Of a stretch of 45,765 nt of DNA, positions 14,357 through 38,378 are shown one piece after another. The notes beneath the pieces are model-generated. The model did not search any database. It was not told where the DNA came from and saw only the letters and a list, made by a program, of their open reading frames with translations. This DNA is from an uncultured Armatimonadetes bacterium (lineage in GTDB: Bacteria; Armatimonadota; Armatimonadia; Armatimonadales; Armatimonadaceae): contig CAIYBQ010000128.1 of NCBI GenBank assembly GCA_903924445.1, forward strand, positions 1 through 45,765, in the 5' to 3' direction. The position numbers were made by a program, and so were the translations under genes. The stretch's first letter is position 1, and every line of letters begins with the position of its first letter.

Positions 14357-14399
14357 AGTTACCTTCCAGCGGACAAGAGGTATCCGCTCTATCACAACG

Positions 14400-15336: not shown

Positions 15337-15414
15337 TCCAGTGGAAAAGGCCGGGAGATGCGGAGTGGATCACACTGCATGCTCACGGCAAGCCATGAAG
15401 GAGTACTTGGCTCT

Positions 15415-16363: not shown

Positions 16364-16406
16364 CGGCTAACGCTCGTCACACAGGCAACGGAATAGGTAG
16401 GAATTG

Positions 16407-20508: not shown

Positions 20509-23500
20509 ATGCACGGAAACACGATCCCCGGGTTTAGGACAAACCGACGACATCGCGAAGGTGGACAATCGCTCACGGTTGCCGTCGTTGTGATGTTCCT
20601 CCTGCTGTTTATTGCTGGACTTTTCATTGCGTTGGTCATTAACAACCTTCGCAACACAAAAGATGCAGCACAGCGCGTTAACGCGACAAAGTATGCTGAA
20701 GCCGGTCTTCGTTATCTCGATGAGCAGTTAACTAAGTCCCCAGAGGGTGCTGACTGGCGTCCAAACCCGAACGATCCACTCGGTGACCAGAACCCGGCGG
20801 CTGATCCTACAGATGCAGTCAACGATGTCGATCCAAATGATCCAGACTACGAATGGCTCGCGGAAGTGTTTCCGGGGCGTGATGGCTACGCCGCAGATGG
20901 TACTCCTCAGGACTTTGGACCGTATACGCGCGTTGAGTTTGGTGGACCAACACCGTCGCAAGGCAATCTTGGTGGTCGGGCACTCGTTCGCGTCGCCTAT
21001 CGTCCTGTAACAAAGGACGCTCTCAATTCCACGCCTGACCAAAAGTACCTACGACTTGACTCCGTCGGACGTGTAGGAAGCATAGATCCTGCCGACCCGA
21101 CGACATTTGGCAACACAGAAGCAAAAGGCCTTCGCCGTGAGCTGTTAGCTTACAAGGCAATCGGCTTGACGGATTACATCCGCTGGTTTACCAATAAGGA
21201 CAATCGAACCGTCCCTGCGACCATCGGGTCAGTCAATACCGTTGTTGACACCCCGGTTGACACCGCTGGTGGAACCCGACCTGTTACAGCGCCTGTTGAG
21301 CGTGAGATTATCAACTACTTTGATGGTCCTATCCGCGCAAATGGCAATCTTGCGTTCTACGGTGTCAATGTGCTTACCTTGGATGCCCGCCGAAACGATG
21401 CTGTTGAAGTGAATGGAACAATCAGCCTTAATGGTCTGGATGATGCGGCGGCGACAGTAACAGCGACAGATCCGACCCGGGTGTACCTTAATGTTGCAGC
21501 TAGCGGCGTACCTAGCGTGCTCCCAAGTCTGTCCGCAAACTTTACGACCATCAGTGGTCTGGTACGTGACAATCCATCCGGCGGTGATGTAACCGAGCTC
21601 AACGGCTTGGATAAGAACCTCCGAACGGTCGCGCGTCTTGAAGCACCTCGCCTCGATGAACAAATCGGACCGAATGGCCTTACCCGCTATCGGTCGCTGA
21701 CACAGTTTTCAGAACCCCTTGCGTCAAAGCATATGACGACATCAGATGCAAGTGACCTCGCAGCTCTCGGCGCAGAGCTTCCTGGACAGGTTGGCTGGGG
21801 CAGCGGTCTCTACATCAACAACCGTGAGGATGTGCAACGGGAATCCGAAAGCCTCCTTGGTGCCTATTCCCTTCGGAGCGATTGGTTGAATCCAGGTGGT
21901 TCTGCGTACTGGCGTGGCGACTTTAAGTATGTGCCACCGGCAGTCACAATCACATTCCATCCTCGCTATGTCAAGATTGACCGTTCACCAACAAGCGTTG
22001 GCCGTTCGCCATTCCGAAATCCATCAGGCCGCCGGTTGTCCGGTAGTAGCACGATTATTCGCTACTCCGGGCCCAGCGATACCGCTCCAGCGGCTGGACT
22101 CAATCAAAATGGCAACCTGGTCTACAAATTTAAGGGATATCCAACCGAGCAAGCCACAGTCAACGGCGTAACCGTAAACAAGGGCGAACTTGTAATTTTC
22201 GCTGAAGGGAACGTCCGTGTAAAGGGAACCGTCGGTGGACGGGATCCAGAAACGGGTGAGCTCTACGTTCGCAACATCACCCTGGTATCCAATGAGAATA
22301 TCTATGTCGATGGAAACCTCCTCAGAGATAATCTGTCTGCATCCAACCCCGGCGACTTTGCGGTTCAGGGGCAATCATCCATTGCTCTGCTGGCACGGAA
22401 CTATGTCGCAGTAAACTCCACGCAGTTCATGTCACCTGATGAAGGACTTGTCAAAGCAGAAGAAGTTGGCTCGGATGCAAAGGCCTTGTTCCTTTCCGCC
22501 AATGCTGCGAACCGGAGCCATGGCGTACGCATCAATGCGGGTCCAATTGATGACAAGGGGACATCACCTTGGGGTGGGACGACTCCGTTCTACACACCTC
22601 GACTGTTCATGCGTCATTCTGCAGAAACAAATGCTGGCACGGCAGTGTCCTTCTCCTTGAATGACAATAACGGTGTTCCGAATCCATTGGTTCTCAATGT
22701 TCCCGGACGGGTGATTGGCGCTGGAAACGCTACATTGCTCCTTGGTGGACCAGCTCAAAATGCCGGTGCATACATCGACGATGTAATTCAGCTCGACACC
22801 AACCTGATGTTCCCGACGCACACCAGCCCGGTTACGGTGGGGAGTGCCGTTGGTATAGACAATGTCCTCAGAGTCTACTTTGATATCAGTGCAGGAATCA
22901 GCAACCAATCGGACTACCGAGTGACACGTATTGGTGTTGCTCCACTTGATGTCCGTGTCGAAGCTTTGATGTATGCGCAGGACCGGTCGTTCTTTATCAT
23001 CCCCGGACCATGGTTCAACCCAGATCCAAATGATACGTACGAGCGGTACGCGGTGAGTGATCCAAATCGCGGTGGGGCGCCTCGCTTGTCGCGCAGCGGT
23101 GATGCTCCTGGTAACGCCCGGATCAACCCAAGGTATCCGTTCTACGGACAACCGATGGACATCCGCTTGACGTTCTTCGGAGCCATCGCGGAAAATATGC
23201 CAGCTGAAATCGGAGACCAGGCTGCGTGGCTCGAAAAATGGGGATGGATTCCACATTACTACGGTTCCACCGGTCTTCCAGTGGCGCCTGGTTACAGCAG
23301 CTCTGGTGTGGTTGAACAAACCATCCATGGACAGAACTCGCCGCAGGCTAGTTTGAGAGGTCCACAAGGTTCTGGAGCTGGAATCGTCTACGAATATGAT
23401 TCACGATGGGAAGCGCCTGGAACCATTCGCTTGGATGCTTACAAGCGCCAGCTTCCACTCGCACCACGGCTTCCAACAGCCCCTGGATTACTCTACGTTG

Positions 23501-23523
23501 GCGAAGATCCACAGAATCGGTGA
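20509..23523 (+). CDS. Giant PilX/GspK-like protein (1004 aa)
   Basis: MHGNTIPGFRTNRRHREGGQSLTVAVVVMFLLLFIAGLFIALVINNLRNTKDAAQRVNATKYAEAGLRYL matches the PilX_N/GspK pattern: basic leader, hydrophobic helix without Glu+5, then a YxAEAGL helix. It starts 5 nt after the upstream stop. No Cys. Confidence 0.55.
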   Translation: MHGNTIPGFRTNRRHREGGQSLTVAVVVMFLLLFIAGLFIALVINNLRNTKDAAQRVNATKYAEAGLRYLDEQLTKSPEGADWRPNPNDPLGDQNPAADPTDAVNDVDPNDPDYEWLAEVFPGRDGYAADGTPQDFGPYTRVEFGGPTPSQGNLGGRALVRVAYRPVTKDALNSTPDQKYLRLDSVGRVGSIDPADPTTFGNTEAKGLRRELLAYKAIGLTDYIRWFTNKDNRTVPATIGSVNTVVDTPVDTAGGTRPVTAPVEREIINYFDGPIRANGNLAFYGVNVLTLDARRNDAVEVNGTISLNGLDDAAATVTATDPTRVYLNVAASGVPSVLPSLSANFTTISGLVRDNPSGGDVTELNGLDKNLRTVARLEAPRLDEQIGPNGLTRYRSLTQFSEPLASKHMTTSDASDLAALGAELPGQVGWGSGLYINNREDVQRESESLLGAYSLRSDWLNPGGSAYWRGDFKYVPPAVTITFHPRYVKIDRSPTSVGRSPFRNPSGRRLSGSSTIIRYSGPSDTAPAAGLNQNGNLVYKFKGYPTEQATVNGVTVNKGELVIFAEGNVRVKGTVGGRDPETGELYVRNITLVSNENIYVDGNLLRDNLSASNPGDFAVQGQSSIALLARNYVAVNSTQFMSPDEGLVKAEEVGSDAKALFLSANAANRSHGVRINAGPIDDKGTSPWGGTTPFYTPRLFMRHSAETNAGTAVSFSLNDNNGVPNPLVLNVPGRVIGAGNATLLLGGPAQNAGAYIDDVIQLDTNLMFPTHTSPVTVGSAVGIDNVLRVYFDISAGISNQSDYRVTRIGVAPLDVRVEALMYAQDRSFFIIPGPWFNPDPNDTYERYAVSDPNRGGAPRLSRSGDAPGNARINPRYPFYGQPMDIRLTFFGAIAENMPAEIGDQAAWLEKWGWIPHYYGSTGLPVAPGYSSSGVVEQTIHGQNSPQASLRGPQGSGAGIVYEYDSRWEAPGTIRLDAYKRQLPLAPRLPTAPGLLYVGEDPQNR

Positions 23524-23549
23524 TGGATACAGGATTAGGAACGATAACC

Positions 23550-26500
23550 ATGCAATGGCTTGATCGGAAAATCACACAGGTAAAGGCTGGCTGGATTGCA
23601 ACGTGCAGCAAAGGGCTAATCGCGCTTGCTGCATTATCCTGTCTTGGCACAGCATCCAGCGCTGATATCACGACCTACTCCACCAACAAACGTGTCTTTA
23701 AAGTTGGTGTACTCCTTGTGGATTCAACGGGATTCAACTTCGCGACTAATCCACCTGCACCACTGCCGGGTGGACCTGAAAATCCAGATCCTCACGTATT
23801 CTATGTTGCTGATTCACGACAGGACCTCAAGCCCGCTAACTGGGAGCTGATCAACCCATTGGCACCGAAGACTGTCACATCGGATATCTATGCTCGCTGG
23901 AGCCAGCCCGGTACAGGACGTGATCAAGCACATCCTTATAAGGTAGGCCAGCAAGTCACCAAGGATATGGCTTGCTACTGGGAAGTGAAGCTTTCGTCTG
24001 CATCAGTAGCTGATCTAGCACAATTTGACTTGCTGTTCGTAACAAACCATCGCACTGTTTTCCTAACACCGGAAGACCGCGAAAAGCTCCGCAAAGTCGT
24101 GGATGCAGGTGCTGTTTTGTGGATGGAAGACTGCTCCCGGATGCGCCTTCATCCGCGGGCACCATTTTTCCTTGAAGATGTTCAGTTTACGAGTGGTGGT
24201 GGTCAGGGCAAGCCTGTCGTTTATATGCCGGGCCATCCCCTGCTGAATCAGCCGTATGCACTCAGCGCACGTGACATCAATCGACTTGGTGATGCTAACT
24301 ATGGTGGGGGACGCGCAATTGCCTCGCATCGCCCTGGTGCTCTGCTTGCAACCGATGCTCCTCTCCTAGCACGTCCAAACCCGCAGGTCTTGCACAACGT
24401 GGTTGGAAACTCGGCAGTCGTTTCATCGACTGGTGAGTATCTCCCGTACATCGCTGCCGGCTCCTATGGAAGTGGTGGAGTCCTGATCACTGCAGGTGAC
24501 AGTGGCTGCGACATAAATGACTATGTCGGTGGTGTCAATATCGGAGCTGGTGGAAACTCCGGCGCATATTCAGGGAAGAATCTCTGGGCTGCACAAAGCG
24601 AAGATCTGCGCTTCGTTTACAACGCGATTGCTTGGGGGTCATCAAGCACCTCCTATCGTAAGAACAACCGTCGCGTTGGAGCCAGCCTCGAAATGGTTGG
24701 TGCTCCACTAATCGATGGCTTTGCTGTTGTTCCGACTTCCGTTGATCCTGCGTTCTCATCGGTTACCTCTCCGCTTGTAACACAAGGTCTTACGATCGCA
24801 TCTGGCGTAAGCGGCGGAGTCGGATTTGTGCGTGCCTACATTTCGCAGCCGTCCTTGGCTGCTGGTGACCGTGGACTTCCCGACCTCATCTTTGGCACGG
24901 CTTGGGATGAAGTATGGCGAGCGCCTATCGGAAGCGCAGGTGTCCCATCTACACCTGTATCCGCTCAGATCTACGTTGGGCTTCCTGCTCCAGTAGAAGT
25001 TGTCTTTGTGACGCTCGGGGATGGAACTCTCGCACGTGTTCCGATGCAATCCAAAGATGACGCGGGTAATCTGCTTGCGCTTCCTGTCGTTGAGACGAAT
25101 GCTCCAGTAGCAATCGGATCGCCATCTACGTACGAGAAGACAGCCTACAACGCTGCTCCAGCACCCGTCGTTTTCGAAAATCGTGTCTATGTAGTTGAGC
25201 CATCGGGATTAGTCCGCTGTGTGGATGCCCGAACGCTGACGACACTCTGGTGGAGCCATACCGAAGCGCTGAACCCAAGCGTAACGCCAAAGGGAACTCC
25301 AACACTGGGCGTCTCGCGACAGGATGTTGGGCAAGTTGGGTTTGGCCGCCGGGATGCATCGATTGCAAGCCGGTCAAATGGCAATACAAACGACGTGATG
25401 CTTTACACACCAGTTGTTGATGCAGACGGCAATGCGCATATCTATGCTTACTGGCTTGGAACGCGCCATGAAGTGGTTCGCACCGATGAGGGCGCGAGTG
25501 GAAACTACCGTACCCGTGTTGCACTGGACAACTCAGCGCCGGTAAACAATCGCCACTACGTAGCGCTCGGTAGGCCTGAGTTCATTACGCCAAGAGTTCG
25601 GGTTTATGACAGCGCTGATGCGATGAATCTCGGCGTATTGTCGACATCCTATTTCGGGACGTTCCGAGCGGATGGCTCAGGATTTGTTGAGGTACGTGGT
25701 ACGAACGGTGATGTTCCAGTCGGTCCTCGTCCTGTGATTTCCGTTGACTACGATGTTATGTATGTCACTGAGGATGCGACGCCTCCAGGCCTCGAAGAGG
25801 GAATCGGTGCACGCCTCGGACAACCATTGGTCATTCCTCAGCTGGATGTGACGCCGGTATCGAGTGGTCTTGACACGGTCGCAATGACAAACGAAGACCT
25901 CCTCGTCTTTGCTGTCCGTCAAACCAATGACCGCAACGGCTCTGGGCTCACAAGCATCATAGGAGTCAATGAGCAGTTCTCTGTTGGTGCGACAAAGTTC
26001 CGTCAGAATGTTGCTATTCTCGAGGACGTAGCTCCTATTAGTGCGCCTGTTGACCGACGAGTGGTCACCGAACTGCCGACATTGCGTAACCGTTTGATCT
26101 TTACTGGCGGAATCAGTACCAGCATGGGGGCAATCCTGGCTCCTGCCTGGGAAGGCCTTACCAATGTTCGTATTATGGGAAGCCCTGCAGTTTCTGCCGA
26201 TGGCATCTCATATGTCGTTGCACAGGCAACATCCGTTGCTAACAACGGTACGGTCTCTGTCATGATTGCGCTTCAGATGGACAAGGATGTCACACTCAAC
26301 CTCCCTGAAGCATACAACCCTGCCTACCCAGTGTCCGTTCGTCAATACAATGCGTTGACGTATCCGGCAACAGGTTCAGATCCTGTCCAAACGACGACAG
26401 CCATTCTTCCTGCGAACGCGGTGGACAATGTTGTTTCGTCTGTTCAGCTGACTGGCGATGCAAAGCGGGGCAAGATAACCGTCACCGATATGCGTCATCC

Positions 26501-28514
26501 AAGTGGTGTCCGCTTCTCGAGCACACAGTCATTTGTCGTCTCGTATGTTCCTGCTGGTACACAGAATCCAGTAACGGTTGTTCTAACTCCGCTACCAGGA
26601 AGCGCTGGTGCACCGGTTACGACAACAGACGACGAAGATGGCTCGTCCTTGCGATCTGTCGGGGGAGCATACTCACCTGTGCTCTGGTACTACATCCTGC
26701 CTGGAGCGCCGACGTCATCTCCTACAGTTAGTGGTAACCATGTGTACTTCGCTATCGGACAGAACATCGTAGCCCTCGATGTTAACCCTGCCGAAACGGA
26801 TCCTTCCGTCCGTGTTGGATTTGGTGAGCAGGTTATCAACGTTGCAAGTTCCATCGTAAATTCCGCAACATCCCAACCATTGACAGTCTCAACAAATCAC
26901 CTTCGCTGGGTCAGAAATGCGGGTGCGGTCATCGCATCCCCACCGGTTGTCGGCGGAAATGTTGTTGCAGTATCTACAGCTGCGGGGCCCGTTGTCTTCC
27001 AGGCAAGCACAACTCTGGTCACCGATGCAAAGCGTATTTTGGAAGTTGGTGCGGATGGTGCAGCGACGTGGGTGATGGACGGAACGGTCGACACCGATGT
27101 TGTAGGCGGCGAAGTTCCGGTATACGATCCTAGCCTCCCGGATGGCATTGCCAATCCACCAGCAAATGGCCGACGTGCAGTTCGCCGAAGTCAGTTGGCA
27201 CGGCCATCGGTTGCACGAAAGCTCTCTGGACAGGACTACCTCATCGCTGACACCGGTAACAATCGTGTGTTACGAGTTGATCGCGGTGGGCGAATCCGCT
27301 GGGAATTGACTACGGTACGTGACACGTTTAAGATTCTGTCTTCCTCTGACAGTACATTGTTGAACAACCCGACGGATGTTCATCTGTCGCTTATTCCAAC
27401 CGCAGACCCGACTGACCCAACAAAGGCTCCGATCGGATATGAGGTTCACTATCTCATCGCTGATGCTGGCAACTACCGTGCAATTGAAGTTGTCGATTAC
27501 CGCGACCTCAATGGAAACATTCGTACCATTGGTGGTGATCGTGGTGAAGGTGTTGTTGTCTGGGTTTCCCGCCTCAAGTCCCGTGAAGGTAGAAACCTAC
27601 GGATTCAAAAGCTGCAGAGGATACAGACCAGCGTCGGCGGCGTTACAGGCATTCCACAAATCGTGGCGGTCGTCGCGAATGCTCAGACGGCAGGTGTCGG
27701 TGGGTTAGATATCGATTCGTCTGGCGGTGCCGTCATTCGACTCGAATATCGACCATACAACACGTTTACGGTGCTTCGTAATGCAGCCGGCGGAGTCCTC
27801 CCGCCTGCTCCATGGCCAGCATCAGGGACTCCATCGGGTTCCGGCTATCCGTGGCCAGCTGCGGCTGCAGGAGCATCCGCACAGACGACTGAACCAGTTC
27901 TGAACGGAACTGTCACCGCAACGATACAAGAGGTCGTCCTGCCAAATGGCGAGACGTATAAGATAACTTCTCCGACCTACTTCGAGCAGGTGACTTTGCC
28001 GAATGGCGTGGGTGGAACCAAGCCGGTTTACATGATTGCTGATGCCAATGGTGTGTATCAGATTGAAGATGGACCGATGGGACGGCGTATCGTTACCTGG
28101 TACTTCAATCAAAGCCATTACAATACGATGAACCTGAATCCGGCATTTAGTGCGGATGGCATCAATCCAAGACTGCTCGTGGTTCCGGGATTGCCAGCAA
28201 ATGAACTTCCAAGGTTCCAGCCGACGGCGATGCGAAGATTGCTGAATGGACGCTACCTGATCACGAATAGTGCGGTTGGCCAATCCTCGGTCTTCCAAAG
28301 TGGACAGTTCTCAGGTGAAGTTCTTGAGGTGATTCCTCAGTTCAACCCAGATGGCACCCCAAATGGTGGGCGCTTCGGCGGATTCTCCGTTCCACAGGTA
28401 ATCAGTCGACCTAATGGACTCGGCGTTGGACGCAATACAAACGTTCAGTGGATGGGCACAACATCCAATAACACATCACTAATCGACCAACCTCTCTTCG
28501 GAGATCGTCTGTGA
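23550..28514 (+). CDS. Secreted giant protein (about 1654 aa): DUF4159-like (class I GATase-like fold) N-terminal region, then PQQ-like and NHL-like beta-propeller repeats
   Basis: Signal peptide MQWLDRKITQVKAGWIATCSKGLIALAALSCLGTASSA|D, with SD TAGGAA 8 nt before ATG 23550. ATG 23523, overlapping the upstream TGA, is the alternative start. FDLLFVTNHRTVFLTPEDREKLRKVVDAGAVLWMEDC resembles the DUF4159 core. Blade-like motifs: NRVYVVEPSGLVRCVDARTLTTLWW, GNHVYFAIGQNIVALD, YLIADTGNNRVLRVDRGGRIRWEL, HYLIADAGNYRAIEV. Confidence 0.6.
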   Translation: MQWLDRKITQVKAGWIATCSKGLIALAALSCLGTASSADITTYSTNKRVFKVGVLLVDSTGFNFATNPPAPLPGGPENPDPHVFYVADSRQDLKPANWELINPLAPKTVTSDIYARWSQPGTGRDQAHPYKVGQQVTKDMACYWEVKLSSASVADLAQFDLLFVTNHRTVFLTPEDREKLRKVVDAGAVLWMEDCSRMRLHPRAPFFLEDVQFTSGGGQGKPVVYMPGHPLLNQPYALSARDINRLGDANYGGGRAIASHRPGALLATDAPLLARPNPQVLHNVVGNSAVVSSTGEYLPYIAAGSYGSGGVLITAGDSGCDINDYVGGVNIGAGGNSGAYSGKNLWAAQSEDLRFVYNAIAWGSSSTSYRKNNRRVGASLEMVGAPLIDGFAVVPTSVDPAFSSVTSPLVTQGLTIASGVSGGVGFVRAYISQPSLAAGDRGLPDLIFGTAWDEVWRAPIGSAGVPSTPVSAQIYVGLPAPVEVVFVTLGDGTLARVPMQSKDDAGNLLALPVVETNAPVAIGSPSTYEKTAYNAAPAPVVFENRVYVVEPSGLVRCVDARTLTTLWWSHTEALNPSVTPKGTPTLGVSRQDVGQVGFGRRDASIASRSNGNTNDVMLYTPVVDADGNAHIYAYWLGTRHEVVRTDEGASGNYRTRVALDNSAPVNNRHYVALGRPEFITPRVRVYDSADAMNLGVLSTSYFGTFRADGSGFVEVRGTNGDVPVGPRPVISVDYDVMYVTEDATPPGLEEGIGARLGQPLVIPQLDVTPVSSGLDTVAMTNEDLLVFAVRQTNDRNGSGLTSIIGVNEQFSVGATKFRQNVAILEDVAPISAPVDRRVVTELPTLRNRLIFTGGISTSMGAILAPAWEGLTNVRIMGSPAVSADGISYVVAQATSVANNGTVSVMIALQMDKDVTLNLPEAYNPAYPVSVRQYNALTYPATGSDPVQTTTAILPANAVDNVVSSVQLTGDAKRGKITVTDMRHPSGVRFSSTQSFVVSYVPAGTQNPVTVVLTPLPGSAGAPVTTTDDEDGSSLRSVGGAYSPVLWYYILPGAPTSSPTVSGNHVYFAIGQNIVALDVNPAETDPSVRVGFGEQVINVASSIVNSATSQPLTVSTNHLRWVRNAGAVIASPPVVGGNVVAVSTAAGPVVFQASTTLVTDAKRILEVGADGAATWVMDGTVDTDVVGGEVPVYDPSLPDGIANPPANGRRAVRRSQLARPSVARKLSGQDYLIADTGNNRVLRVDRGGRIRWELTTVRDTFKILSSSDSTLLNNPTDVHLSLIPTADPTDPTKAPIGYEVHYLIADAGNYRAIEVVDYRDLNGNIRTIGGDRGEGVVVWVSRLKSREGRNLRIQKLQRIQTSVGGVTGIPQIVAVVANAQTAGVGGLDIDSSGGAVIRLEYRPYNTFTVLRNAAGGVLPPAPWPASGTPSGSGYPWPAAAAGASAQTTEPVLNGTVTATIQEVVLPNGETYKITSPTYFEQVTLPNGVGGTKPVYMIADANGVYQIEDGPMGRRIVTWYFNQSHYNTMNLNPAFSADGINPRLLVVPGLPANELPRFQPTAMRRLLNGRYLITNSAVGQSSVFQSGQFSGEVLEVIPQFNPDGTPNGGRFGGFSVPQVISRPNGLGVGRNTNVQWMGTTSNNTSLIDQPLFGDRL

Positions 28515-31500
28515 GCCGTACAAATCGTATGAAAATCGAAACCCTTAATGCCCTCGTACGCACAGGATTCGCTGTAACCCTTTTTGGGACAGTGATAATC
28601 CCGGGTATGGCCCAGGAATTTACCCGGCCAAAACCGACAGCTACGAATCGGCCATCGATGCAGAATCCTGGCGGTAAAGCCCATGGTGGTAACAACAACC
28701 GTGGACGCCTTACAGGAGATTATCTCTGGGGTGTAACCAATGGAAACCGCACCTTTGATAAGCCTGTCTACAGTAGGGTTCCGCAGGAAACGATTGATTC
28801 TCCATTGTTTCTGGATGGCTGGACGTATCCGATAGCCCGTGCAGCTACCGGTGCCCGTGTTGGTCAAAACGCAACGGGCAGTATTCGTGACTTGTTGTTT
28901 CCGAGCGTCTTACTCGATAACGAAGCAACGGTCGGTATCGCGCCGATTAATGGCGCTACGGTTATCGCTCCGACCGGCAGAGTCGTCATTGGAGCCTCAT
29001 GGCTGACACCTGTTTCCGGTCCATCGACCCTGTTCACCGGGACGGTGTACCATCGCAAACAGGCAATCCAAAGGGCAAATGGTAACCCTGGAAATAACCC
29101 CACGGATGCCGGTAAGTTCAGCTGGTATCCATCGGTTGCGGGTGCTGCAGGATCGGTATCGCGGTATGCCATTCGGATCAAGATCCCACAATCTGCAAGT
29201 GACACCAGTGTTGAAGCCCGTGTCGCGGATGCCCGTTACGTTGTTTACTACCAAGTTCCAAACGGCAGCGGTGGCTTTACGCGTGCATCCAAGGTCTGTT
29301 ACGTCAGTCAACGAACGGCAGGCAGTTTTTATCTGAGTGGAACAGATGGCCAACCAGCCTACTTCCCGATGTTCTCTGATGCGACATACGGAGCTGGCGG
29401 AACCTATGCAAATGGGGGAGCGTTCGCGGATGGAACATTCCGTGCACGTGTTGAGCTCGATGCGACCACCGAATCACCGGCCGCTAATACATTCGTAATC
29501 GCCGATCAGGTCGAGTTTGTACAACGCCCACAAGCTGTCAAGGCAACTCCTACATTGGTTCCACCGCATGGTGGACGTAAGGTTGATACCGAACAGACTG
29601 GGTTTACGCCGAATAACTATTTTCAGCCGTTGGCATCAGCAACCTATACGATCGCAGACTTTATCAACAACCCGCTTGATCCCAGTTTTACAACGGGTAC
29701 GGCTACGATTGACGCAACAAACATCTCGACCATATTCTGGGGACCAGAATCAACAGTTCAACCTCTGAATGGGACGTCTGCGGTTGCTCCTGTAGATGCA
29801 ATCAATCACCGGGCATACCAGGATGGTTCTGGTAACCTGCTTCCATTCTTCTCGCACATGCAGGTCTTGGTTCCACGGACAGACTACATCGTTGATCCGG
29901 AAACAGGGGTTCCTACGGCGAGCAGCGATGGTACAAAGTCCATCGAACTTGGATCTATTCACTCCGTTGACTGGCTTACGGGGACACCAATCTGGCGATT
30001 TCCAGACCGCTCCTACATGCCTGGCGGTTTTCGAAACCCACAGGTTGGTACCGATATCGCGAACAAACCTGTCTATCAGATTCCAGGGATTGTCTCCTAC
30101 GATGTCAACAACGATGGAACCATCGTGGATGAGGAAGTCTTTATCGGCTCCCACGGTGACAACAACAATGGTGGCATCGCTGCGAGTGTGACGATCGTTC
30201 CGGGTATCGCAGTGCGAGGTCAGGTTCAGGTCCCGGTTCGAAATGCAAGTGGCGTAATCACTGGAACAACGGCAGCTCCACGCGGGCGCTACTTTGTTGA
30301 GCAAACGGTTCCAACACCGGGCTTTGCACCAGTTCTCAATACGGTTGCTTTTGTTACGGCCAACAATGGTGTGGTCTATGCGATTGACCCGTATGGCAAC
30401 AACGACTCCCGTTATCTTCCAAATGCGGACACAGCCATTCTTGGTACGTATCGCTACGGCTCCACAAACGTTCTCTGGACATTCTCACCTGAGAGTGCAG
30501 ACAGAGGAACAACGGGAACGCGTGCAGAGACATTAGAGCTTTACAACCGTCGCCTAAAGACGGAAGTTCCTGTCCCTGGGCCGTTTGGTAGTGCTGCACC
30601 TGTTGTCGCTTGGGCAAAGGCTGATACTGACCCGACATTGAACCTTCTTACAGACGAACCGCGTTTGTTTGTAGGAAACCAAAATGGAAATGTCTATGCA
30701 TTGGATGCCCGTGCTGATGCAGGCGTCAATGCTGTTTCGAATACGCTGAATGCGTTGCCATACCGCAAGGGACAACAAACCTACAATCCGAAACATCTCG
30801 CGAATAGCTTGGTCGTGCAGACTGATCCGCACCGCGCTGAACTCAAGTGGTGGTTTGAAACACTCGGTGCCATCAATGCATCTGTTGCAGTTTCCGAAGT
30901 ACCTGCGGCGAGAACGGCTCCAGCAACGGTTACTGCATCGAAGGGTGTTTATGTAACGACTGGAGAAGGTCGCGTTTACGCATTGGACTTTGATGGTCCT
31001 GTGACCAAGGCCGATCATGATGCAAACATGGTTTGGGATGGAACTGCTGGTGACTCACTGACAGCGGGAACTGCGCCGTCATTACCACCTACTGCAGGAT
31101 CCGCTGCCGCACTTAATGACAACATCAGGTTTAGGAATGCTGTGGCCGCACTTTCCGGTGCACGTCCAGACTTTACCGAGGGAACGATTCGACCGCGCTG
31201 GACATATCCAAACCGTTACCGTGATATCTCCGGCACCGACAACAAACTGACGGATCCGATTGATGCATCGACGGTTTACCCTGGAGCGAAGCTTGCTGAG
31301 CCAAGTACGGTTGCCGGACCTATCTACTCGGCACCAGTCCTCCTTGACTTCCCGTTCCTGGATCCAGACACGGCGACACTTTCCGGGGTACGACGTTACG
31401 TTGTTGTTTCGACAAACGACTTGAATGCCGACTCTCCTGATAGCCCACGTCAAGGTCGGTTGCTGTTGCTTGATCAGGAAGGTGACCGCAAGGATTTCCT

Positions 31501-34500
31501 TACTAACCCGATGCCTACCAAGGCATCAGCGGCAGTCGTTCCGCCCGCGAAGCCCGTGGCTGCAGCTGGTGCAACGATTTATTCTCAGCCCATCGATCAA
31601 TACGTCTCAAAGTTAGGTGCTTTTGGTCGGGCGACACCTGCCTGGACCTATCGGCATCAGTTTGACACTTACACGGCAGGTGTCCCGAGTATTGCAAAGC
31701 GGAATGCTCCTGTAGCCACCGGAGTTACGGGTAGCCCTGCTTATCGAACATTACCGACGATCTTTGTTGGTGGCATCGGGCGTGTCTATGCAATCGATCT
31801 CGATCCAGCGACTGGTCTTTTCCTACGCTGGCGTGGAACAGCTGCTGATCAGCTGACAACATTGCCTACCGGCGCAGTGATTCCATCGGAAGAGGGTGCA
31901 ACGGATCGTCTAAACCCCAATGATCCACTCAACCCGTCAAACCCATTGTTTAACGTTGGTGATCGCCTGACGAAGCGGCTCGGATTCAAACGTATCCTTG
32001 CAAGGACGGTTCCTCTCCTTGGGGATCGATCGGCCATCGATGGTGACTTGGTTGTTACGGGTGGACCACTAATCAATCGCAGCAATGCGGAAGCACGTAC
32101 TGCGGCTGCGACATTGACTGGACGCGGAGCTGGAACGACAACCCCTGTGGATGTCTCCCTCACAACATCACCTCTACGCCCAAGCGTTCCATTGATTCCA
32201 ACGGATGATGCGCCATCGAGTGTTTACGTGATGCGTTCGACTGCGACTGGTGCATACGCACCATTCGGTTACGACATTACATCGGTGTTGTTTGCAGACA
32301 GTGTGTTCCCGGTCTTTGACTTCACTGGAATGTATGCCAATCAGGATGTCGATGATCCGCTGAGCACAACACGCGGAACGTTGCCATCGACGACGGCGGC
32401 TCCAGCGCTGGCATCGGGTACTCCGGAGAACACTGCCTATCAGTATCCAAGTTTGTTTGTAACCAGTCGTGATGGCTACCTCCACGAGCTGAGCACAAAC
32501 CTTGAAGGCGAAGATCTATCGCTGCCATCGGTTGTAACCAATCCTGGTGAAACAACAGCGGCACTGGGATGGGCGACGACGGAAGACCCGGAACGCTTCA
32601 ATGATCTCCATGTCTACCTTGTAACTAGGATGGGGCCGGGCGGTCAGGGTTCCGGCATAACAGCCGTTACGAATGCGTATTTCCCTGGTCGAGATTCGGA
32701 CTATGCGAAGTCCCGTGGTATTCAGCAAAAGCTGCGTACGGACGGAACAGCCTACTTCCGTTTTTATCCGCCACAGGAACCAGTTGTGGTTGGGCAAACG
32801 CCAGACTACGGAGATAATGCACGACCAAACCTCAAGCCACGCGGTCTCTATCGCCAGCTGGTTTCGGCGGTGTTTTTCCCGAAGGATACCAATACGGGAG
32901 CCACCGGCTTCCCATTGGATCAACGTGGACTCTTCTACGACAAGCGTTTCCGGACAGCGGCTGGAACGAATGCGAATGAAGGTGGATTGGTAAAGCTTCC
33001 CGGCTACTCGGCCATGGGTGAAGTCACGGGCGCAACCGCCTTCAATCCGCAAGGACCAGAATCCGATAGTGAGCGCGCGGCTGCAAACACATCGCTTGCT
33101 CCGGGAATCCTTGCAGCGCCAAGTGCAAATGTAAACCCAAGTGGTCAAAACGCAACGTGGGTCTATGTTGCTGGTGATGACGGTCTGCTGTACGCATATA
33201 CCCCTGTGTATGCGAAGCGCCTCGGTGGTATTGCATCCGGGTTTGTCGGCGGGACAATTGTTCGTCGCGTCGATCCTGGTGAAGGTCAAGTTAAGGTCGA
33301 CATCTTCGATGCCGCTGACTTCCAGACCTTGTTTGCCGCGGCCCAAAGCGGGTCGCCACTACGTCCACGCCGTGACGGTGAAGCAGCGACTGCGCCAAGT
33401 ACGAGCAATATTGTGTCCCGTACAGCAAAGGGTAAGCGGCCATTCTTTGAGTGGGGTGAGTCTATTCCGATTGTTATCTGGGATGTAACGGTACGTAAGT
33501 CGTTTGACTCATCGACACCAGCACCCTCGATTCCAAACATTCCAGCAAGCTTCCAGGTCACTGTGCGGTTGACGCCACGCGGTGGAAATTCGATTACGCG
33601 AACGCTGAATCTCGCGATGTCAGGACCTACCGTCTCGGTTTATCCTTACGATCGTGAGTACACGGTTCCTCCGATTGACACACCTGCTGGGCATGTGCCA
33701 GCGGCACTTGGGATAGCGTTTGCTGACTTCCGAATCGATGGAACAAGCGGACTTCCTATCGGACCAGGAACACCTATCGATGTCCAAGTAACGGTTGGTC
33801 CTCCACTGACCGTTCCAGGTTCAGATCCTCGTACTGGTCCTCAAGTTATTGTTCAGGTTGTGGGTGGAGCGTTTGAGGCACAGATTCTCAATCGCACCAA
33901 TCCACTTTTCTGGGCGGCTAACCCTCTCGGTGTACAGGGCTTCCTGATGGACACCGTGAGCACCGCGAATGGAGTTGCTCCAGTCTTGGTAGGTAAGCCA
34001 TCAGGTGATCCTCTCGCTGGTGGTATCGGACCATTCCGTACGGGTGACAACGCCAAGGCCTTGTATCCATCCGCTGGCGCGACACTGGTCGACCCGGATA
34101 GAGCTGGTTCCGAATATAGCCAAGCACTTGGAAATGGAAATGTGATTGAGCGTATCGATGCCGATCAGTTCCTCTCCGATGGTGTTGGTGGGCGACGACG
34201 TAACACTCGGTTTGGTTTACGCTTGCGGGATGCAGCCGGGGCAGATGACCTTTCCTACTACGTGCCGGTCGCAGCGAGCGCAGGCTACATCAACCATGGC
34301 CGTACAGGCTCATCGGATGTGTCTGCAAATCAACGTAACCTTCGCATCGTCAACCGTTCACTAATGGGCTCCCTGAGCAATGTTCGTGCAGAAGTTCTCG
34401 ATGACCTTATCTGGCGATGGTGGCCGGCAAACTTGCCGAATGCTGATTCTGGAACGGACAATGTCCGCCGGACGCCAATCGGAATGGGCGTGGATGGACG

Positions 34501-37500
34501 TATCAATCCATTGCCTTGGGAAACAGTCGTGACTGAGGCCCAGCCATGGAAGCGCAAGGCGCTGACTGCGGCAACGGGTTCCATCATGGCACTCGGAAAC
34601 CTTAGCCCTGACTACACAGACATCAGTGCAGCATCCGCATCGAATCAAGGCCGACAGGCTGTGTCGATTGTTATCAACGGTACCGATGCGGTCACCGGTG
34701 GAGCATCCGTGTTTGCTGGTGGTCAAGACCTTCAGACAAACACAAATCCTGGCTACGTGACAAACCCATTGGGAGCTGCTGCTAGTGCATCGGCTGCTAT
34801 CAATGTCAAGGTGCCGCGGTACCAGCCAGCCAACTTGGTCGCGATGCATTCGTTGACATCCACGTATGAGTTGCCAAGTAGCATTGACGGAGCAACGATT
34901 ACGACGGCAGATGGTCGTGTCCAGCTTCCACGTGGACTTGCCAACCGTGAACTACGTAAGTGGACCGGTGGTAGCTTCAATGGTGAGAAGGCAATCACGC
35001 CGTTCGGTTACACAAGTCGTGTCCGAATGTATGTGGATGCGAACGGTAATGGAATCTGGGATGCTCAGAGTGGCGAAGAGCCATACCGCATCGTCGAAGT
35101 CTGGATGGGCGTTCCTGTCGACATGGGGCTGCGTGCAGCTGAAACACCTGTTGATCTTGGTGGGCTGCCTGGCGGCTTCGGTATCCAAAATGGTGTTCTT
35201 GGCTACGGTGGAACGATTCTAAGCGGTGAGCAAGCAGGCTTTGCGCCTCCGCCACTTCGTGCACCATATGCACCATTCTTCCGTCCGGTAACGATTCAGA
35301 ACACGGGAAATGTCAACCTTTGGAACCTCCGCGCATCACAGCGCATCGAGACACCAGGGTCGGCGACGGCAGGTGCGGGTACAAACTACTATCTCTTCGG
35401 AATGCGAAGCGAGCTCGTTGACCCACGCTTTGGTATTCTCGCCTTCGGTGCGGATCCTAATGGGAACTTGCCACTGGCTAACTTGATGCCGCAGGTGGTG
35501 ACATCGCTGGATAAGACATTCGACAACGCATGGCTTCAGTGGATGCAAACCAATCCTGATCCGGTCTTCCGTGCAACGATGGACTACGACCTCGGTGGCC
35601 AAACCGTCTTCCAACGGTATTACCAACCGCTTGCGGGACGTCATACGCTCCACAAGGCTCAGCCGAACGCAGCGAACCCATCGGTGCTTGGTATTCCTGA
35701 CCTTCCTGGTGCACAAAACCTGTTGCCATATGGTTACGTTGCTCCTGAAGCAGCAAAGCCGATGGTCGGAATCGCAGTTCCACACGGTACGCCGACCGGG
35801 GTTTACTCAAGCCGGTACGCAAACCGTAATGGTGCACCACCTCAGCTAGGCGTCTTCGAGGACCATGACACTGATCCGACGAGAAACTATGCAGCGGTTC
35901 CTGTTCTGCAACCAGATGGCACCATCTCGATTGCTGGACCGACATACCGTGGCATCAATGGCGTCGACAGTAACCTCAACTTCGTCTACCCAGGCGCTCA
36001 GCCTATCTTCCCGGTAGCTGGCGAAACCGTCCTTCGCGGACGGACTGGCATCACGAATGCAGCAGGTGCTGTTGTCGGTGTTGAATATCAGCCACACACT
36101 AACCCGTCGATGGAGTTGAAGGTAACCGTTTCAGAGAGCTCGATCACTGGTCAGGTTCCTGACTTTGATCTCAGCGCTCAGGTTGCGAACGGCCAGCTGC
36201 CCGGTATTGATGTGTTCCCGATTCTGGATGCCGCCCGGCGACCAGCATCGGCCATCAGCCCTGCGACGTACCGCTCGGCCAATGGACGGATTAACGTCTA
36301 CTTCTCGCGCAATGCAGATGCAAACGGAGTTGCTTTGACCGGTGTCGGTGACCCAGTAAAGCTGTTCCATTCGCATATGAACTGGAATCCAACACTGGGA
36401 ACGTTCGTGGCTGCCGACTTTGGAACGCCTGTTGCTGATCCATCGCTGAACACGGGACGCTGGTTTACAGCACCTACGATTATCAATGGAACTGCTGACT
36501 TGCGGGAAAGCAATACGGCTCCGTATGTGCTCCAAACGTCACCAACGCAGACCAATGCGCTCCTCGTCTGGGCGAACAGCCGTCAAGCGTCCGGAGGGGA
36601 CATCCTCGACACGATCATGTATTCTCGCCTCGATGCCAATGGCGTTCCGTCATCGGTGAACCCATGGTTTGTCAATGGTGATCCTGAAGTACGTCGGTTT
36701 AGTCCAAAGGTCGCCTTTGATTCTGGTACGAATACATCGATGCTTGTCTTCCACGGAGGAGTTCCTGGGAAGTGGCGGTTAATGTACTCTGGCCGGGGAT
36801 CCGATGGCGCTGGTGTTCCAACAGATACCGCTCCGGATGGCGCTGGTCGTCAGCTTGGTGAACAGGTTCTGTCGCTTCCAGATTCGATCGTGAGCGCTAG
36901 CGAGCCGTTTGCTACATTCCGCCGGATGGTTCGCCATAACAATGGTGCATCACCGGTCTTGGATGTTGTCTTTACAGGAACTGTCCGTACGGATGCAAAC
37001 CCTGATCTCTACATGGCCCGCTACCTAATGCTGGGTAATGGTCGACGGTCGCGACTTGCGCCGGCTGACCTTCCACAGATTACAAATGAGCTTCTTGTTC
37101 AGGAAGGTCGTGAGCTTCTCTGGAAGGCACGTCACATTGCATGGACGAGCAACCTGGACGATCAAGCATCCCTTCCTGTGGTGCGTTTGGCTAAGTCCGA
37201 TGGAACATCCATCACGACAAACGCCACACGGTGGCAATACGATGCAGCAACCAAGGTTCTGTATCAGGCCATCGCGCAGCCAACCGGTGTGATGTACATC
37301 TATGCGGATGCAACCGCTGGTGTGATTCGCTTCCGCGGCGTGGGGACACCAACAAGTCGTGATCAGGTGTTTGCATCCTATCAACCGAGGCTCTATCGCC
37401 TCACGGCAGATGATGCAGCAGACACAGGCGTAACGGTCGTCAACGACAACCGGACGCTGGCTGCAGGAACTGGTTCCTACAGTGGCATCGTTCGTCGGCC

Positions 37501-38212
37501 AAATACGACCAGCATGGGAGCAGGACGGTCGTGGTTGGTATGGCAAAAGGGCGCTGAGCCTGGTCGCCCTGCCACCTTGTACATGAGCACACGGCGTGTA
37601 GGCATCGATCTTCGCAGTCTGTCATTGCCAGTCGCACAACGGCTTGCACTTGAAGAGACTGTCGGACTCGAAGCACCGACTGCACCTGGTGCATCACAGT
37701 TCCCATCCGTAGCATCCGTTGCGGTAGCCGGCGTTGGTGCTGTGCCGTTTGACATCGATGTCCTTCGAGGACGTATCTTTGTGGATGCAGTGTTTGAAGG
37801 TCAGTTGATAACGGTCACGTACACAGCGGCGAACGGCAATGCACTCAACAATCGGGTTGCGGTTGCGGTGCTGTCGCAAATCGAAGAGCTTGGTGGGACT
37901 GAGAGCTCAACCGGCACGGTGCCTAGCGGCCCGCAGTCGATTGGCCAGATGGTGCCGATGCAGCGTGCAGTGAATGAGGGCCAAGTGTCCGCATTCCTCG
38001 ATCTCTTCAATGCAACAGCGGGTGTGAACCGTGTGAACGGACCAGCCCCTGGTGGAGATCCAACGCTTGAATCGGGTCGTCTCTGGATGTTCTGGACGAG
38101 CTCACGTGGACGGTTTGCAAAGCCTGGTGCCGATGGACTAGTCCTTCCAAGCGGCTTTGACATCCTCTACCAGACGCTTGCACCAAACTTTGAGTTTCCA
38201 AGCTACCGCTAA
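28511..38212 (+). CDS. Secreted giant protein (3233 aa) with dispersed PQQ-like beta-propeller blades and EF-hand-like Ca loops; proposed PilY1-analogous tip protein
   Basis: GTG 28511 sits 6 nt after GGAGA and overlaps the upstream stop (GTGA). Signal-like N-terminus: MKIETLNALVRTGFAVTLFGTVIIPGMAQE. Blade motifs: VAFVTANNGVVYAIDPYG, LFVGNQNGNVYALDARA, VYVTTGEGRVYALDFDG, IFVGGIGRVYAIDLDPATG, LFVTSRDGYLHELS, VYVAGDDGLLYAYTPV. Ca-loop-like sequences: DVNNDGTIVDEE and DANGNGIWD. One uninterrupted ORF, with a single Cys. Confidence 0.6.
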   Translation: MSRTNRMKIETLNALVRTGFAVTLFGTVIIPGMAQEFTRPKPTATNRPSMQNPGGKAHGGNNNRGRLTGDYLWGVTNGNRTFDKPVYSRVPQETIDSPLFLDGWTYPIARAATGARVGQNATGSIRDLLFPSVLLDNEATVGIAPINGATVIAPTGRVVIGASWLTPVSGPSTLFTGTVYHRKQAIQRANGNPGNNPTDAGKFSWYPSVAGAAGSVSRYAIRIKIPQSASDTSVEARVADARYVVYYQVPNGSGGFTRASKVCYVSQRTAGSFYLSGTDGQPAYFPMFSDATYGAGGTYANGGAFADGTFRARVELDATTESPAANTFVIADQVEFVQRPQAVKATPTLVPPHGGRKVDTEQTGFTPNNYFQPLASATYTIADFINNPLDPSFTTGTATIDATNISTIFWGPESTVQPLNGTSAVAPVDAINHRAYQDGSGNLLPFFSHMQVLVPRTDYIVDPETGVPTASSDGTKSIELGSIHSVDWLTGTPIWRFPDRSYMPGGFRNPQVGTDIANKPVYQIPGIVSYDVNNDGTIVDEEVFIGSHGDNNNGGIAASVTIVPGIAVRGQVQVPVRNASGVITGTTAAPRGRYFVEQTVPTPGFAPVLNTVAFVTANNGVVYAIDPYGNNDSRYLPNADTAILGTYRYGSTNVLWTFSPESADRGTTGTRAETLELYNRRLKTEVPVPGPFGSAAPVVAWAKADTDPTLNLLTDEPRLFVGNQNGNVYALDARADAGVNAVSNTLNALPYRKGQQTYNPKHLANSLVVQTDPHRAELKWWFETLGAINASVAVSEVPAARTAPATVTASKGVYVTTGEGRVYALDFDGPVTKADHDANMVWDGTAGDSLTAGTAPSLPPTAGSAAALNDNIRFRNAVAALSGARPDFTEGTIRPRWTYPNRYRDISGTDNKLTDPIDASTVYPGAKLAEPSTVAGPIYSAPVLLDFPFLDPDTATLSGVRRYVVVSTNDLNADSPDSPRQGRLLLLDQEGDRKDFLTNPMPTKASAAVVPPAKPVAAAGATIYSQPIDQYVSKLGAFGRATPAWTYRHQFDTYTAGVPSIAKRNAPVATGVTGSPAYRTLPTIFVGGIGRVYAIDLDPATGLFLRWRGTAADQLTTLPTGAVIPSEEGATDRLNPNDPLNPSNPLFNVGDRLTKRLGFKRILARTVPLLGDRSAIDGDLVVTGGPLINRSNAEARTAAATLTGRGAGTTTPVDVSLTTSPLRPSVPLIPTDDAPSSVYVMRSTATGAYAPFGYDITSVLFADSVFPVFDFTGMYANQDVDDPLSTTRGTLPSTTAAPALASGTPENTAYQYPSLFVTSRDGYLHELSTNLEGEDLSLPSVVTNPGETTAALGWATTEDPERFNDLHVYLVTRMGPGGQGSGITAVTNAYFPGRDSDYAKSRGIQQKLRTDGTAYFRFYPPQEPVVVGQTPDYGDNARPNLKPRGLYRQLVSAVFFPKDTNTGATGFPLDQRGLFYDKRFRTAAGTNANEGGLVKLPGYSAMGEVTGATAFNPQGPESDSERAAANTSLAPGILAAPSANVNPSGQNATWVYVAGDDGLLYAYTPVYAKRLGGIASGFVGGTIVRRVDPGEGQVKVDIFDAADFQTLFAAAQSGSPLRPRRDGEAATAPSTSNIVSRTAKGKRPFFEWGESIPIVIWDVTVRKSFDSSTPAPSIPNIPASFQVTVRLTPRGGNSITRTLNLAMSGPTVSVYPYDREYTVPPIDTPAGHVPAALGIAFADFRIDGTSGLPIGPGTPIDVQVTVGPPLTVPGSDPRTGPQVIVQVVGGAFEAQILNRTNPLFWAANPLGVQGFLMDTVSTANGVAPVLVGKPSGDPLAGGIGPFRTGDNAKALYPSAGATLVDPDRAGSEYSQALGNGNVIERIDADQFLSDGVGGRRRNTRFGLRLRDAAGADDLSYYVPVAASAGYINHGRTGSSDVSANQRNLRIVNRSLMGSLSNVRAEVLDDLIWRWWPANLPNADSGTDNVRRTPIGMGVDGRINPLPWETVVTEAQPWKRKALTAATGSIMALGNLSPDYTDISAASASNQGRQAVSIVINGTDAVTGGASVFAGGQDLQTNTNPGYVTNPLGAAASASAAINVKVPRYQPANLVAMHSLTSTYELPSSIDGATITTADGRVQLPRGLANRELRKWTGGSFNGEKAITPFGYTSRVRMYVDANGNGIWDAQSGEEPYRIVEVWMGVPVDMGLRAAETPVDLGGLPGGFGIQNGVLGYGGTILSGEQAGFAPPPLRAPYAPFFRPVTIQNTGNVNLWNLRASQRIETPGSATAGAGTNYYLFGMRSELVDPRFGILAFGADPNGNLPLANLMPQVVTSLDKTFDNAWLQWMQTNPDPVFRATMDYDLGGQTVFQRYYQPLAGRHTLHKAQPNAANPSVLGIPDLPGAQNLLPYGYVAPEAAKPMVGIAVPHGTPTGVYSSRYANRNGAPPQLGVFEDHDTDPTRNYAAVPVLQPDGTISIAGPTYRGINGVDSNLNFVYPGAQPIFPVAGETVLRGRTGITNAAGAVVGVEYQPHTNPSMELKVTVSESSITGQVPDFDLSAQVANGQLPGIDVFPILDAARRPASAISPATYRSANGRINVYFSRNADANGVALTGVGDPVKLFHSHMNWNPTLGTFVAADFGTPVADPSLNTGRWFTAPTIINGTADLRESNTAPYVLQTSPTQTNALLVWANSRQASGGDILDTIMYSRLDANGVPSSVNPWFVNGDPEVRRFSPKVAFDSGTNTSMLVFHGGVPGKWRLMYSGRGSDGAGVPTDTAPDGAGRQLGEQVLSLPDSIVSASEPFATFRRMVRHNNGASPVLDVVFTGTVRTDANPDLYMARYLMLGNGRRSRLAPADLPQITNELLVQEGRELLWKARHIAWTSNLDDQASLPVVRLAKSDGTSITTNATRWQYDAATKVLYQAIAQPTGVMYIYADATAGVIRFRGVGTPTSRDQVFASYQPRLYRLTADDAADTGVTVVNDNRTLAAGTGSYSGIVRRPNTTSMGAGRSWLVWQKGAEPGRPATLYMSTRRVGIDLRSLSLPVAQRLALEETVGLEAPTAPGASQFPSVASVAVAGVGAVPFDIDVLRGRIFVDAVFEGQLITVTYTAANGNALNNRVAVAVLSQIEELGGTESSTGTVPSGPQSIGQMVPMQRAVNEGQVSAFLDLFNATAGVNRVNGPAPGGDPTLESGRLWMFWTSSRGRFAKPGADGLVLPSGFDILYQTLAPNFEFPSYR

Positions 38213-38234: not shown

Positions 38235-38263
38235 AACGGCCCCTGAAACAGGGGCCGTTTTTT
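38235..38263 (+). terminator. Strong rho-independent terminator closing the six-gene operon
   Basis: aacggcccctg-aaa-caggggccgtt forms a perfect 11-bp GC-rich stem followed by a 6-T run (two T shared with the stem). It lies 23 nt after the stop at 38212. Confidence 0.88.
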
Positions 38264-38378
38264 ATGGCCGTTCAGTTCCCCTTTTCTGAGTTCTGTTCGA
38301 CTGCACGCCTTGATGTTTGTTTAGGACGGTCGCGATGCATAGCGATTATCCGTATGATGGCTGCAAGGTGGATTGACA

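Follow-up and report, generated by a model that had tools for sequence, protein, structure and literature searches.

A giant, putatively exported two-propeller protein linked to type IV pilus genes in Armatimonadota

Positions 28511 to 38212 of a 45,765-nucleotide contig from an uncultured Armatimonadetes bacterium (CAIYBQ010000128.1, assembly GCA_903924445.1; the whole of this stretch is referred to as the window) encode a protein with a calculated mass of 342.6 kDa (~343 kDa), here called the giant. Five genes, orf1 to orf5, precede it in an operon (Table 1). The giant gene is a single open frame of 3233 codons with a GTG start and no break, and this GTG overlaps the stop codon of orf5 (28512-28514) through a shared GTGA. 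An earlier, sequence-only reading of the window had pointed to an intact 9.7-kb frame, the GTGA overlap, a GGAGA Shine-Dalgarno sequence and a signal-like N-terminus, all of which are borne out. A homologue with 95% identity, P0001, begins MKIETL, at the methionine equivalent to ATG 28529; the true start of the giant may therefore lie 18 nt downstream, a choice suggested by sequence comparison that has no consequence for the rest of the analysis.

Table 1. Features of the giant gene, its product and the genes that precede it. Coordinates are those of the window; a slash in a peptide motif marks the (predicted) cleavage site.
Feature	Coordinates	Strand	Size or residues	Remarks
orf1	15358..16338	+	326 aa	Prepilin, G/FTLIELLVV; GspG/PilA-like N-terminus; weak DUF1559 match
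orf2	16404..18299	+	631 aa	PilV-like minor pilin, A/ASLVEV
orf3	18248..20503	+	751 aa	Minor pilin, A/FTLTELLVV; N-terminus like HpsC and Verru_Chthon cassette protein C
orf4	20509..23523	+	1004 aa	Pilin-type helix, GG/QSLTV, without Glu5; PilX/GspK-like
orf5	23406..28514	+	1702 codons	Sec-exported product of ~1660 aa; DUF4159, PQQ-like and NHL propellers
Shine-Dalgarno sequence GGAGA	28500..28504	+		6 nt ahead of the GTG of the giant
Giant gene	28511..38212	+	3233 codons	GTG start
Signal peptide	28511..28612	+	aa 1-34	Sec-type (type I); predicted cleavage GMA/QE
Golvesin_C-like beta-sandwich	29000..29557	+	aa 164-349	hhalign to the Pfam-called Golvesin_C region of relatives
PQQ-type beta-propeller	29942..33310	+	aa ~478-1600	~8 blades; motifs, profile matches
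EF-hand-like loop	30101..30136	+	12 residues	D531-x-N-x-D-G-x-I-x-x-x-E542; within the N-proximal propeller
Conserved module 1	33149..33943	+	aa 1547-1811	Last propeller blade and next domain; common to second-tier relatives
Conserved module 2	35003..35830	+	aa 2165-2440	Beta-rich; common to second-tier relatives; local hmmsearch
C-terminal propeller module	36233..38209	+	aa ~2575-3233	With inserted beta domains; AlphaFold2, Foldseek, HMMER
Intrinsic-terminator-like hairpin and T-run	38235..38265	+		11-bp stem, 8 G-C pairs

The N-terminus of the giant has a charged n-region followed by a hydrophobic core (aa 19-32), and equivalent A-x-A/Q signal peptides are present in all 17 homologues. The protein has no other hydrophobic segment, on which ground we rejected a membrane protein, and its single cysteine is at aa 263, on which ground we rejected a lipoprotein. 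The strong terminator-like hairpin (38235-38259) starts 23 nt past the stop codon and, together with its T-run, indicates that the giant gene ends the operon in the window. The sequence-only reading had called it the terminal gene; this stands for the window and fails for most relatives, where pilM comes next.

The 17 homologues were found in a search of 5.8 billion proteins. Sixteen of them have 3200-3832 aa and align with the giant at 34-95% identity over 86-100% of the query; the other, P0017 (2512 aa), covers half of it. Those that carry a name are from Armatimonas or Armatimonadaceae, and in the alignment of these close homologues conservation is even across the full length of the protein. 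The frame is open in every relative examined and intact across many independent assemblies, so a pseudogene or assembly artefact was rejected. Comparison with the 93%-identical gene at locus L012 gave a ratio of nonsynonymous to synonymous divergence (dN/dS) of 0.024 over 2340 codons; dS is saturated, but the synonymous excess is plain despite this. The gene is real and is under strong purifying selection. A word-indexed search with a 27-row alignment returned five proteins, and the same type of search with aa 1547-2165 (33149-35005; 619 aa) returned none, not even the 95%-identical homologue, which is probably a prefilter artefact. Our literature search found nothing on this giant family or on pilus proteins of Armatimonadota.

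The wider family was sought by a full HMMER scan with the C-terminal 674 aa against 1.84 billion cluster representatives. The module was found in 294 representatives at E<=1e-3; for 109 of these the E-value was 1e-30 or below. Most have 2100-3800 aa, the close relatives having 3000-3800 aa and the second-tier relatives mostly 2100-3200 aa. In the latter the module lies at the extreme C-terminus; no other part of the family is conserved as widely, and the N-terminal part is more variable. Named members are Armatimonadota, including Chthonomonadaceae, and one is annotated as a 'PQQ-binding-like beta-propeller repeat protein'. Two C-terminal peptide patterns, scanned against the GTDB species genomes, identified 21 loci, all 21 in Armatimonadota. 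No member from another phylum was seen among the matches, most of which carry no taxonomy, so that the family is likely, though not certain, to be confined to Armatimonadota.

Scans of the giant against Pfam and NCBIfam, and of 13 relatives against Pfam, gave nothing above noise (GEVED, DUF4060). The architecture was read from motifs, profile comparisons and structural models. The absence of tandem nucleotide or peptide repeats, first judged by eye, is upheld: Tandem Repeats Finder reports no tandem repeat in the gene (its sole row is a 15-nt run), self-BLASTP gives weak blade-sized similarities only, and a profile-profile self-scan of the family alignment places internal similarity between diverged propeller blades alone, at aa ~480-1570. 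In this profile self-comparison the matching pairs are aa 588-627 with 695-733 (92%), 615-683 with 721-779 (89%), 782-826 with 932-988 (68%), 678-739 with 1024-1103 (64%) and 610-627 with 1548-1565 (40%). The giant is thus not built from tandem adhesin repeats; nor is it wholly repeat-free, since two internally repeated propellers are present. A repeat-built adhesin was rejected on these grounds, and RTX, Ig-like and cadherin Pfam domains are absent from the giant and the 13 relatives.

The N-proximal part begins with a region, aa 164-349, that resembles a Golvesin_C beta-sandwich. The window protein itself has no direct Pfam match to Golvesin_C (PF25275); the assignment comes by way of second-tier relatives, which carry one or two copies with Pfam matches above cut-off (E 1e-13 to 1e-23) and to whose Golvesin_C region the giant aligns with an hhalign probability of 98.4% (E 9.5e-15). 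The literature under 'Golvesin' concerns a Dictyostelium Golgi marker only.

The region that follows is a predicted PQQ-type propeller. Strict blade motifs, G-x-[VIL]-[YF]-A-[ILVY]-D, occur at aa 620, 726, 820 and 1090, and degenerate ones were recognized by eye at about aa 481, 982, 1325 and 1558. The roughly eight blades are spread across ~1100 aa with a spacing of 94-235 aa, which confirms large inserts between them; six PQQ-like motifs with large inserts had been noted earlier, and the present count of four strict and about four degenerate motifs is roughly in line with this. The window protein passes no Pfam cut-off for PQQ families. Its relatives P0058 and P0063 pass that for PQQ_2 (49 and 52.6 bits against a cut-off of 27.6), and the family profile matches designed PQQ-type propellers among PDB sequences (whole-sequence E 5.6e-11). 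In second-tier relatives the propeller is compact, not stretched, and the giant region aligns with it at an hhalign probability of 95-97% in several registers. The AlphaFold2 (AF2) model of aa 470-1660, built from eight sequences, is poor, with a mean predicted local distance difference test score (pLDDT) of 44 and a predicted template-modelling score (pTM) of 0.51; Foldseek returned weak matches for this poorly modelled segment, nearly all of them propellers. The EF-hand-like loop within this propeller has D531 and E542 invariant in 18 of 18 aligned rows, with the acidic, Asn and Gly positions between them largely retained. The loop is Asp/Asn/Gly-rich and of a calcium-binding type, and it may bind calcium.

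The central, beta-rich region includes two modules shared with the second tier. Both were located by local hmmsearch of the family profile, and for module 1 hhalign gives 97.4%. Module 2, modelled by AF2 at pLDDT 60-90, carries the loop D2176-x-N-G-N-G-x-W-D and the motif TIQNTGNVNLWNLR. A weak, sub-threshold Pfam GEVED match (aa 2171-2188, 17.7 bits) falls on the same loop (aa 2176-2184, 35036-35062), which is Asp/Asn/Gly-rich, of a calcium-binding type, and is also kept in most of the second-tier sequences that we inspected by eye.

The C-terminus is confidently predicted to form a second propeller. The AF2 model of aa 2040-3233, from a 40-sequence alignment, is almost all beta, with mean pLDDT 79.4 and pTM 0.80, and pLDDT is ~90 over the last 650 residues (aa 2580-3230). 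Foldseek searches of the PDB with this model gave 796 matches at E<=10, 114 of them at E<=0.001. Among the best 50 of the 796, the top matches, headed by 1w8o, 7vco, 1w2t and 4qqs (probability 1.0, TMt 0.27-0.45), comprise sialidases from bacteria and trypanosomes, fructofuranosidases of family GH32, enzymes of families GH43 and GH93 and a lyase of family PL24, with E-values of 2e-7 to 1e-4. These folds are five- to seven-bladed propellers, and they are matched with modest TM-scores (0.2-0.45 of the target). Foldseek comparison with viral structures showed no more than a generic likeness to propellers, sialidases and attachment proteins. The strand pairs from which the sequence-only reading had suspected a second propeller-like module (LLVWANSRQ.../IMYSRLD and others) coincide with predicted blade hairpins, and on this point the models carry the earlier suggestion further. 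Beta domains inserted at aa ~2855-2998 and ~3040-3150 keep the hairpins apart, and a self-scan with a deeper alignment detects weak similarity among four or five of these hairpins in the last 660 aa (hhalign probability 67-78%). The module ends in the conserved motif W-x-F-W-x-S-x-R ... LYYQTLAPNF, and its residues R2837, R2963, R3006, R3029, E3156 and W3195 are invariant. By sequence, the C-terminal profile has no match among PDB sequences, and Pfam finds no glycoside-hydrolase, BNR/Asp-box or lyase family in 13 members at E<=0.5.

We turn now to the neighbouring genes. The products of orf1 to orf3 carry the prepilin N_methyl motif, and the PilV match at the N-terminus of orf2 has an E-value of 1e-6. 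The orf4 product has a pilin-type helix that lacks Glu5, the hallmark of PilX and GspK; for these subunits a capping position on the minor-pilin complex, with contacts to PilY1 or to substrates of the type II secretion system (T2SS), has been proposed (PMC7541494). At 326, 631, 751 and 1004 aa the four proteins are three to five times the size of canonical minor pilins. Their cleavage motifs lie ~19 to 52 residues inside the open reading frames (ORFs), the mechanical starts of which are probably too far upstream; likely starts are near 15415 for orf1, 16431 for orf2 and 18377 for orf3.

The start of orf5 is probably ATG 23523, which makes a TGATG overlap with the orf4 stop, or ATG 23550, and the protein begins with a Sec signal peptide. 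Of 10 members of the orf5 family, all carry DUF4159, eight NHL and six PQQ_2. Alone, orf5 found nothing among PDB sequences, and the profile of its family found BamB blades only, at an E-value of about 0.003. Paralogy between orf5 and the giant was rejected, the best BLASTP E-value being 0.087. On the other side of the operon, a TolC-like OEP gene and an alpha/beta-hydrolase gene (12896-15203, reverse strand) run divergently from the pilin genes; their mechanical ORFs overlap by 53 nt.

In the examined contigs that extend far enough upstream, locus L010 excepted, the giant is preceded, in this order, by an N_methyl gene, a ~1000-aa gene and a ~1700-aa gene. Directly 3' of the giant, a strong PilM_2 gene is present at six examined loci (L003, L006, L008, L009, L010 and L011), and the genes past pilM, scanned in L010 and L011, match PilN and PilO/T2SSM weakly and Secretin strongly and include an STN domain. 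Neither GspC nor GspL was seen in the flanks of the giant genes. The gene order behind the giant in L011 (18292-28031) and L010 (16872-24578) is pilM, then three small genes, to which the PilN and PilO/T2SSM matches belong, then an STN/secretin gene and lastly aro genes, namely aroC-aroK-aroB in L011 and a DHQ-synthase gene in L010. Proteobacteria have the same arrangement, pilMNOPQ-aroKB.

In the window lineage the giant is followed by abutting genes for an SOS-response-associated peptidase (SRAP) and a NUDIX protein (38373-39589). Locus L004 and the contig of homologue P0003 share this arrangement, so that the pilMNOQ block must lie elsewhere in these three. Near the homologue at locus L007 (24077-27716) there are a gene with a weak Secretin_N match and an N_methyl/DUF1559 pilin-like gene, followed by glycosyltransferase and Wzy_C genes, a neighbourhood in which pilin-like proteins may be connected with polysaccharide export in Armatimonadota.

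Synteny with pilin genes, pilMNOQ genes or both is held from 95% down to about 25% identity. The pilus context is thus stronger than the sequence-only reading had it, with four prepilin-like genes upstream in the window and pilM, weak PilN and PilO genes and a secretin gene downstream in relatives. Persistence of the linkage over this range supports well the idea that the giant has a role in a type IV pilus machine, and we regard such a role, deduced from gene neighbourhoods, as very probable.

As to what that role might be, we favour the reading that the giant is a non-pilin component of a type IVa-pilus-like machine and a functional analogue of PilY1, an assignment by analogy to which we give a probability of about one half. 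In PilY1 the signal peptide is of type I, the C-terminus conserved and the N-terminus variable (PMC7541494). The reading is favoured because the giant shares the signal peptide and this conserved-C, variable-N layout, is encoded after PilV- and PilX-like genes, and has a propeller and an EF-hand-like loop. By analogy, it would sit at the pilus tip and act in adhesion. The giant would be exported to the periplasm through its signal peptide, and its C-terminal propeller module would dock on a complex of the pilin-like orf1 to orf4 products with orf4 at the top; orf5 may join. Giant and complex together would prime pilus assembly on the PilMNO platform and ride the growing fibre outward. The variable N-terminal part, comprising the Golvesin_C-like sandwich, the loop-bearing PQQ-type propeller and lineage-specific inserts, would then be the adhesive or sensing end.

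Several observations weigh against a PilY1 analogue. The giant has no match to PF05567 at E<=1 and 13 members have none at E<=0.5; NCBIfam returns no family for the giant at E<=1; the family profiles do not find PilY1 among PDB sequences; and 3HX6 is absent among the 50 Foldseek matches listed for each model (PQQ segment and C-terminal). The C-terminal propeller is of the sialidase and glycoside-hydrolase fold class rather than the PQQ type attributed to PilY1, and the order of propellers is inverted, the PQQ-type one being N-proximal and not C-terminal. The sequence-only reading had suggested a PilY1-style tip protein expanded about threefold and a comparison with the PilY1/PilC C-terminal domain. 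With its implication of homology this is not supported, the PF05567, NCBIfam and PDB-profile searches having given no match. Since there is no match to PilY1 by sequence, and propeller order and fold differ, the likeness is one of position and design logic and not of demonstrated membership of the family. Moreover, orf5 shares the 'PilY1 position', is as strong a candidate and could itself be the actual PilY1 analogue. At L010, pilMNOQ adjoins the family member and no pilin genes lie upstream, an arrangement as compatible with a machine component as with a tip protein. A folded protein of 343 kDa, with a 170-kDa partner and minor pilins of 600-1000 aa, would also be a stretch for the known channel size of a secretin. 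The argument throughout is built on sequences and structural models.

Some of these points would suit a giant that is instead a structural or accessory part of the machine, a periplasmic or outer-membrane scaffold acting with PilMNO and the secretin, with orf5 as the PilY1 analogue. The tightest and most widespread linkage is with the pilM-N-O-secretin genes directly downstream, which in L010 holds with no adjacent pilin genes; the size of the giant makes passage through a secretin questionable on general grounds; and orf5, too, combines a Sec signal peptide with PQQ-like blades. We nevertheless find a scaffold doubtful. The window lineage, L004 and the P0003 contig keep the giant with minor-pilin genes where adjacency to pilMNOQ has been lost, the giant has no membrane anchor, lipobox or recognizable secretin- or peptidoglycan-binding domain, and machine components are usually much smaller and much less variable at one end.

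The pilin-like genes might alternatively form a T2SS-like pseudopilus, with the giant as its cargo, an extracellular glycan-binding or glycan-cleaving protein. The N-terminus of orf1 is GspG-like and orf4, without Glu5, is like GspK; the Golvesin_C-like sandwich and the resemblance of the C-terminal fold to sialidase, GH32, GH43, GH93 and PL24 enzymes would be in keeping with such a cargo, and PilY1 itself has been likened to a T2SS substrate (PMC7541494). The genes downstream, however, match PilM_2 strongly but PilN and PilO/T2SSM only weakly, neither GspC nor GspL was seen in the flanks, the enzyme-like fold is matched with modest TM-scores and is accompanied by no glycoside-hydrolase, BNR or lyase family by sequence in 13 members, and T2SS cargo genes are rarely syntenic with the machine across a whole phylum. 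We judge a cargo quite unlikely. A generic surface adhesin or envelope protein that merely neighbours pilus genes would likewise be large, secreted, beta-rich and free of recognizable catalytic domains, but it would hardly keep pilin and/or pilMNOQ synteny from 95% to about 25% identity; the giant has no adhesin-type tandem repeats and is translationally coupled to orf5. This last explanation is very improbable.

Present models of how type IV pili are primed and adhere through their tips are founded on PilY1 proteins of ~1000-1500 aa, mainly those of Proteobacteria and Myxococcus. Were the giant to serve in their place, a family two to three times the size of PilY1, in the same operon position and unrelated in sequence, would mean an independent solution to the non-pilin tip or priming role. 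One can go further, to an Armatimonadota type IV filament in which the whole priming or tip assembly is enlarged several-fold, the giant representing a tip or priming class unrelated to PilY1; we regard this as a speculative and rather unlikely extension. The candidate assembly would combine the four pilin-like proteins (326-1004 aa) with two non-pilin propeller proteins, one of 1700 aa and the other of 2100-3800 aa, for a total of about 800 kDa. If it exists, it could not pass a conventional secretin in folded form, which would imply either an unusual passage of the outer membrane or a filament unlike known type IVa pili. The testable question that follows is how large a tip complex a secretin-based machine can accept. 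For giant metagenomic 'hypothetical proteins' in roughly 300 representative clusters, the analysis also offers a clue to function.

It remains to compare the giant with known systems. Its C-terminal module has its best structural matches, at a probability of about 1, in the five- and six-bladed propellers of sialidases and GH32, GH43 and GH93 enzymes; it differs from them in having no BNR/Asp-box or glycoside-hydrolase family match and in the large beta domains between its blades. With the eight-bladed PQQ-like propellers (BamB, PQQ_2 and Beta-prop_ACSF4) the giant shares the blade signature G-x-hYAhD ... W, but its blades are 94-235 aa apart compared with about 45, and there is no evidence of cofactor binding. 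Giant adhesins of the RTX, Ig-like/Big and cadherin types are alike in size, export and beta-rich composition and differ in their tandem repeats.

The Verru_Chthon cassette (TIGR02596/02598/02599/02600) and the cyanobacterial Hps locus (HpsA with pseudopilins HpsB-D) likewise combine prepilin-like proteins with one very large non-pilin and belong to poorly studied phyla, and at their N-termini orf2 and orf3 weakly match Verru_Chthon B and C as well as HpsC. These matches span the N-terminal helix only and fall far under the curated cut-offs, and neither the giant nor orf5 matches cassette protein A or HpsA in NCBIfam.

The PilY1/PilC family of Pseudomonas, Neisseria and Myxococcus (PF05567; 3HX6) resembles the giant in being a non-pilin whose signal peptide is of type I, in one conserved and one variable end, and in the combination of a beta-propeller with an EF-hand-like loop; the giant, too, ends a minor-pilin operon with a PilV-like gene and a Glu5-less PilX-like gene. 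The giant differs in being about three times larger and having no vWA domain, in its two propellers against one, of which the PQQ-type is N-proximal and split by inserts, in the presence of orf5 as a second large propeller protein beside it, and in the single locus that its gene shares with pilMNOQ in relatives. What is new here can best be summed up as a candidate non-pilin partner for minor pilins, with no sequence relation to PilY1, with two propellers and two to three times larger.

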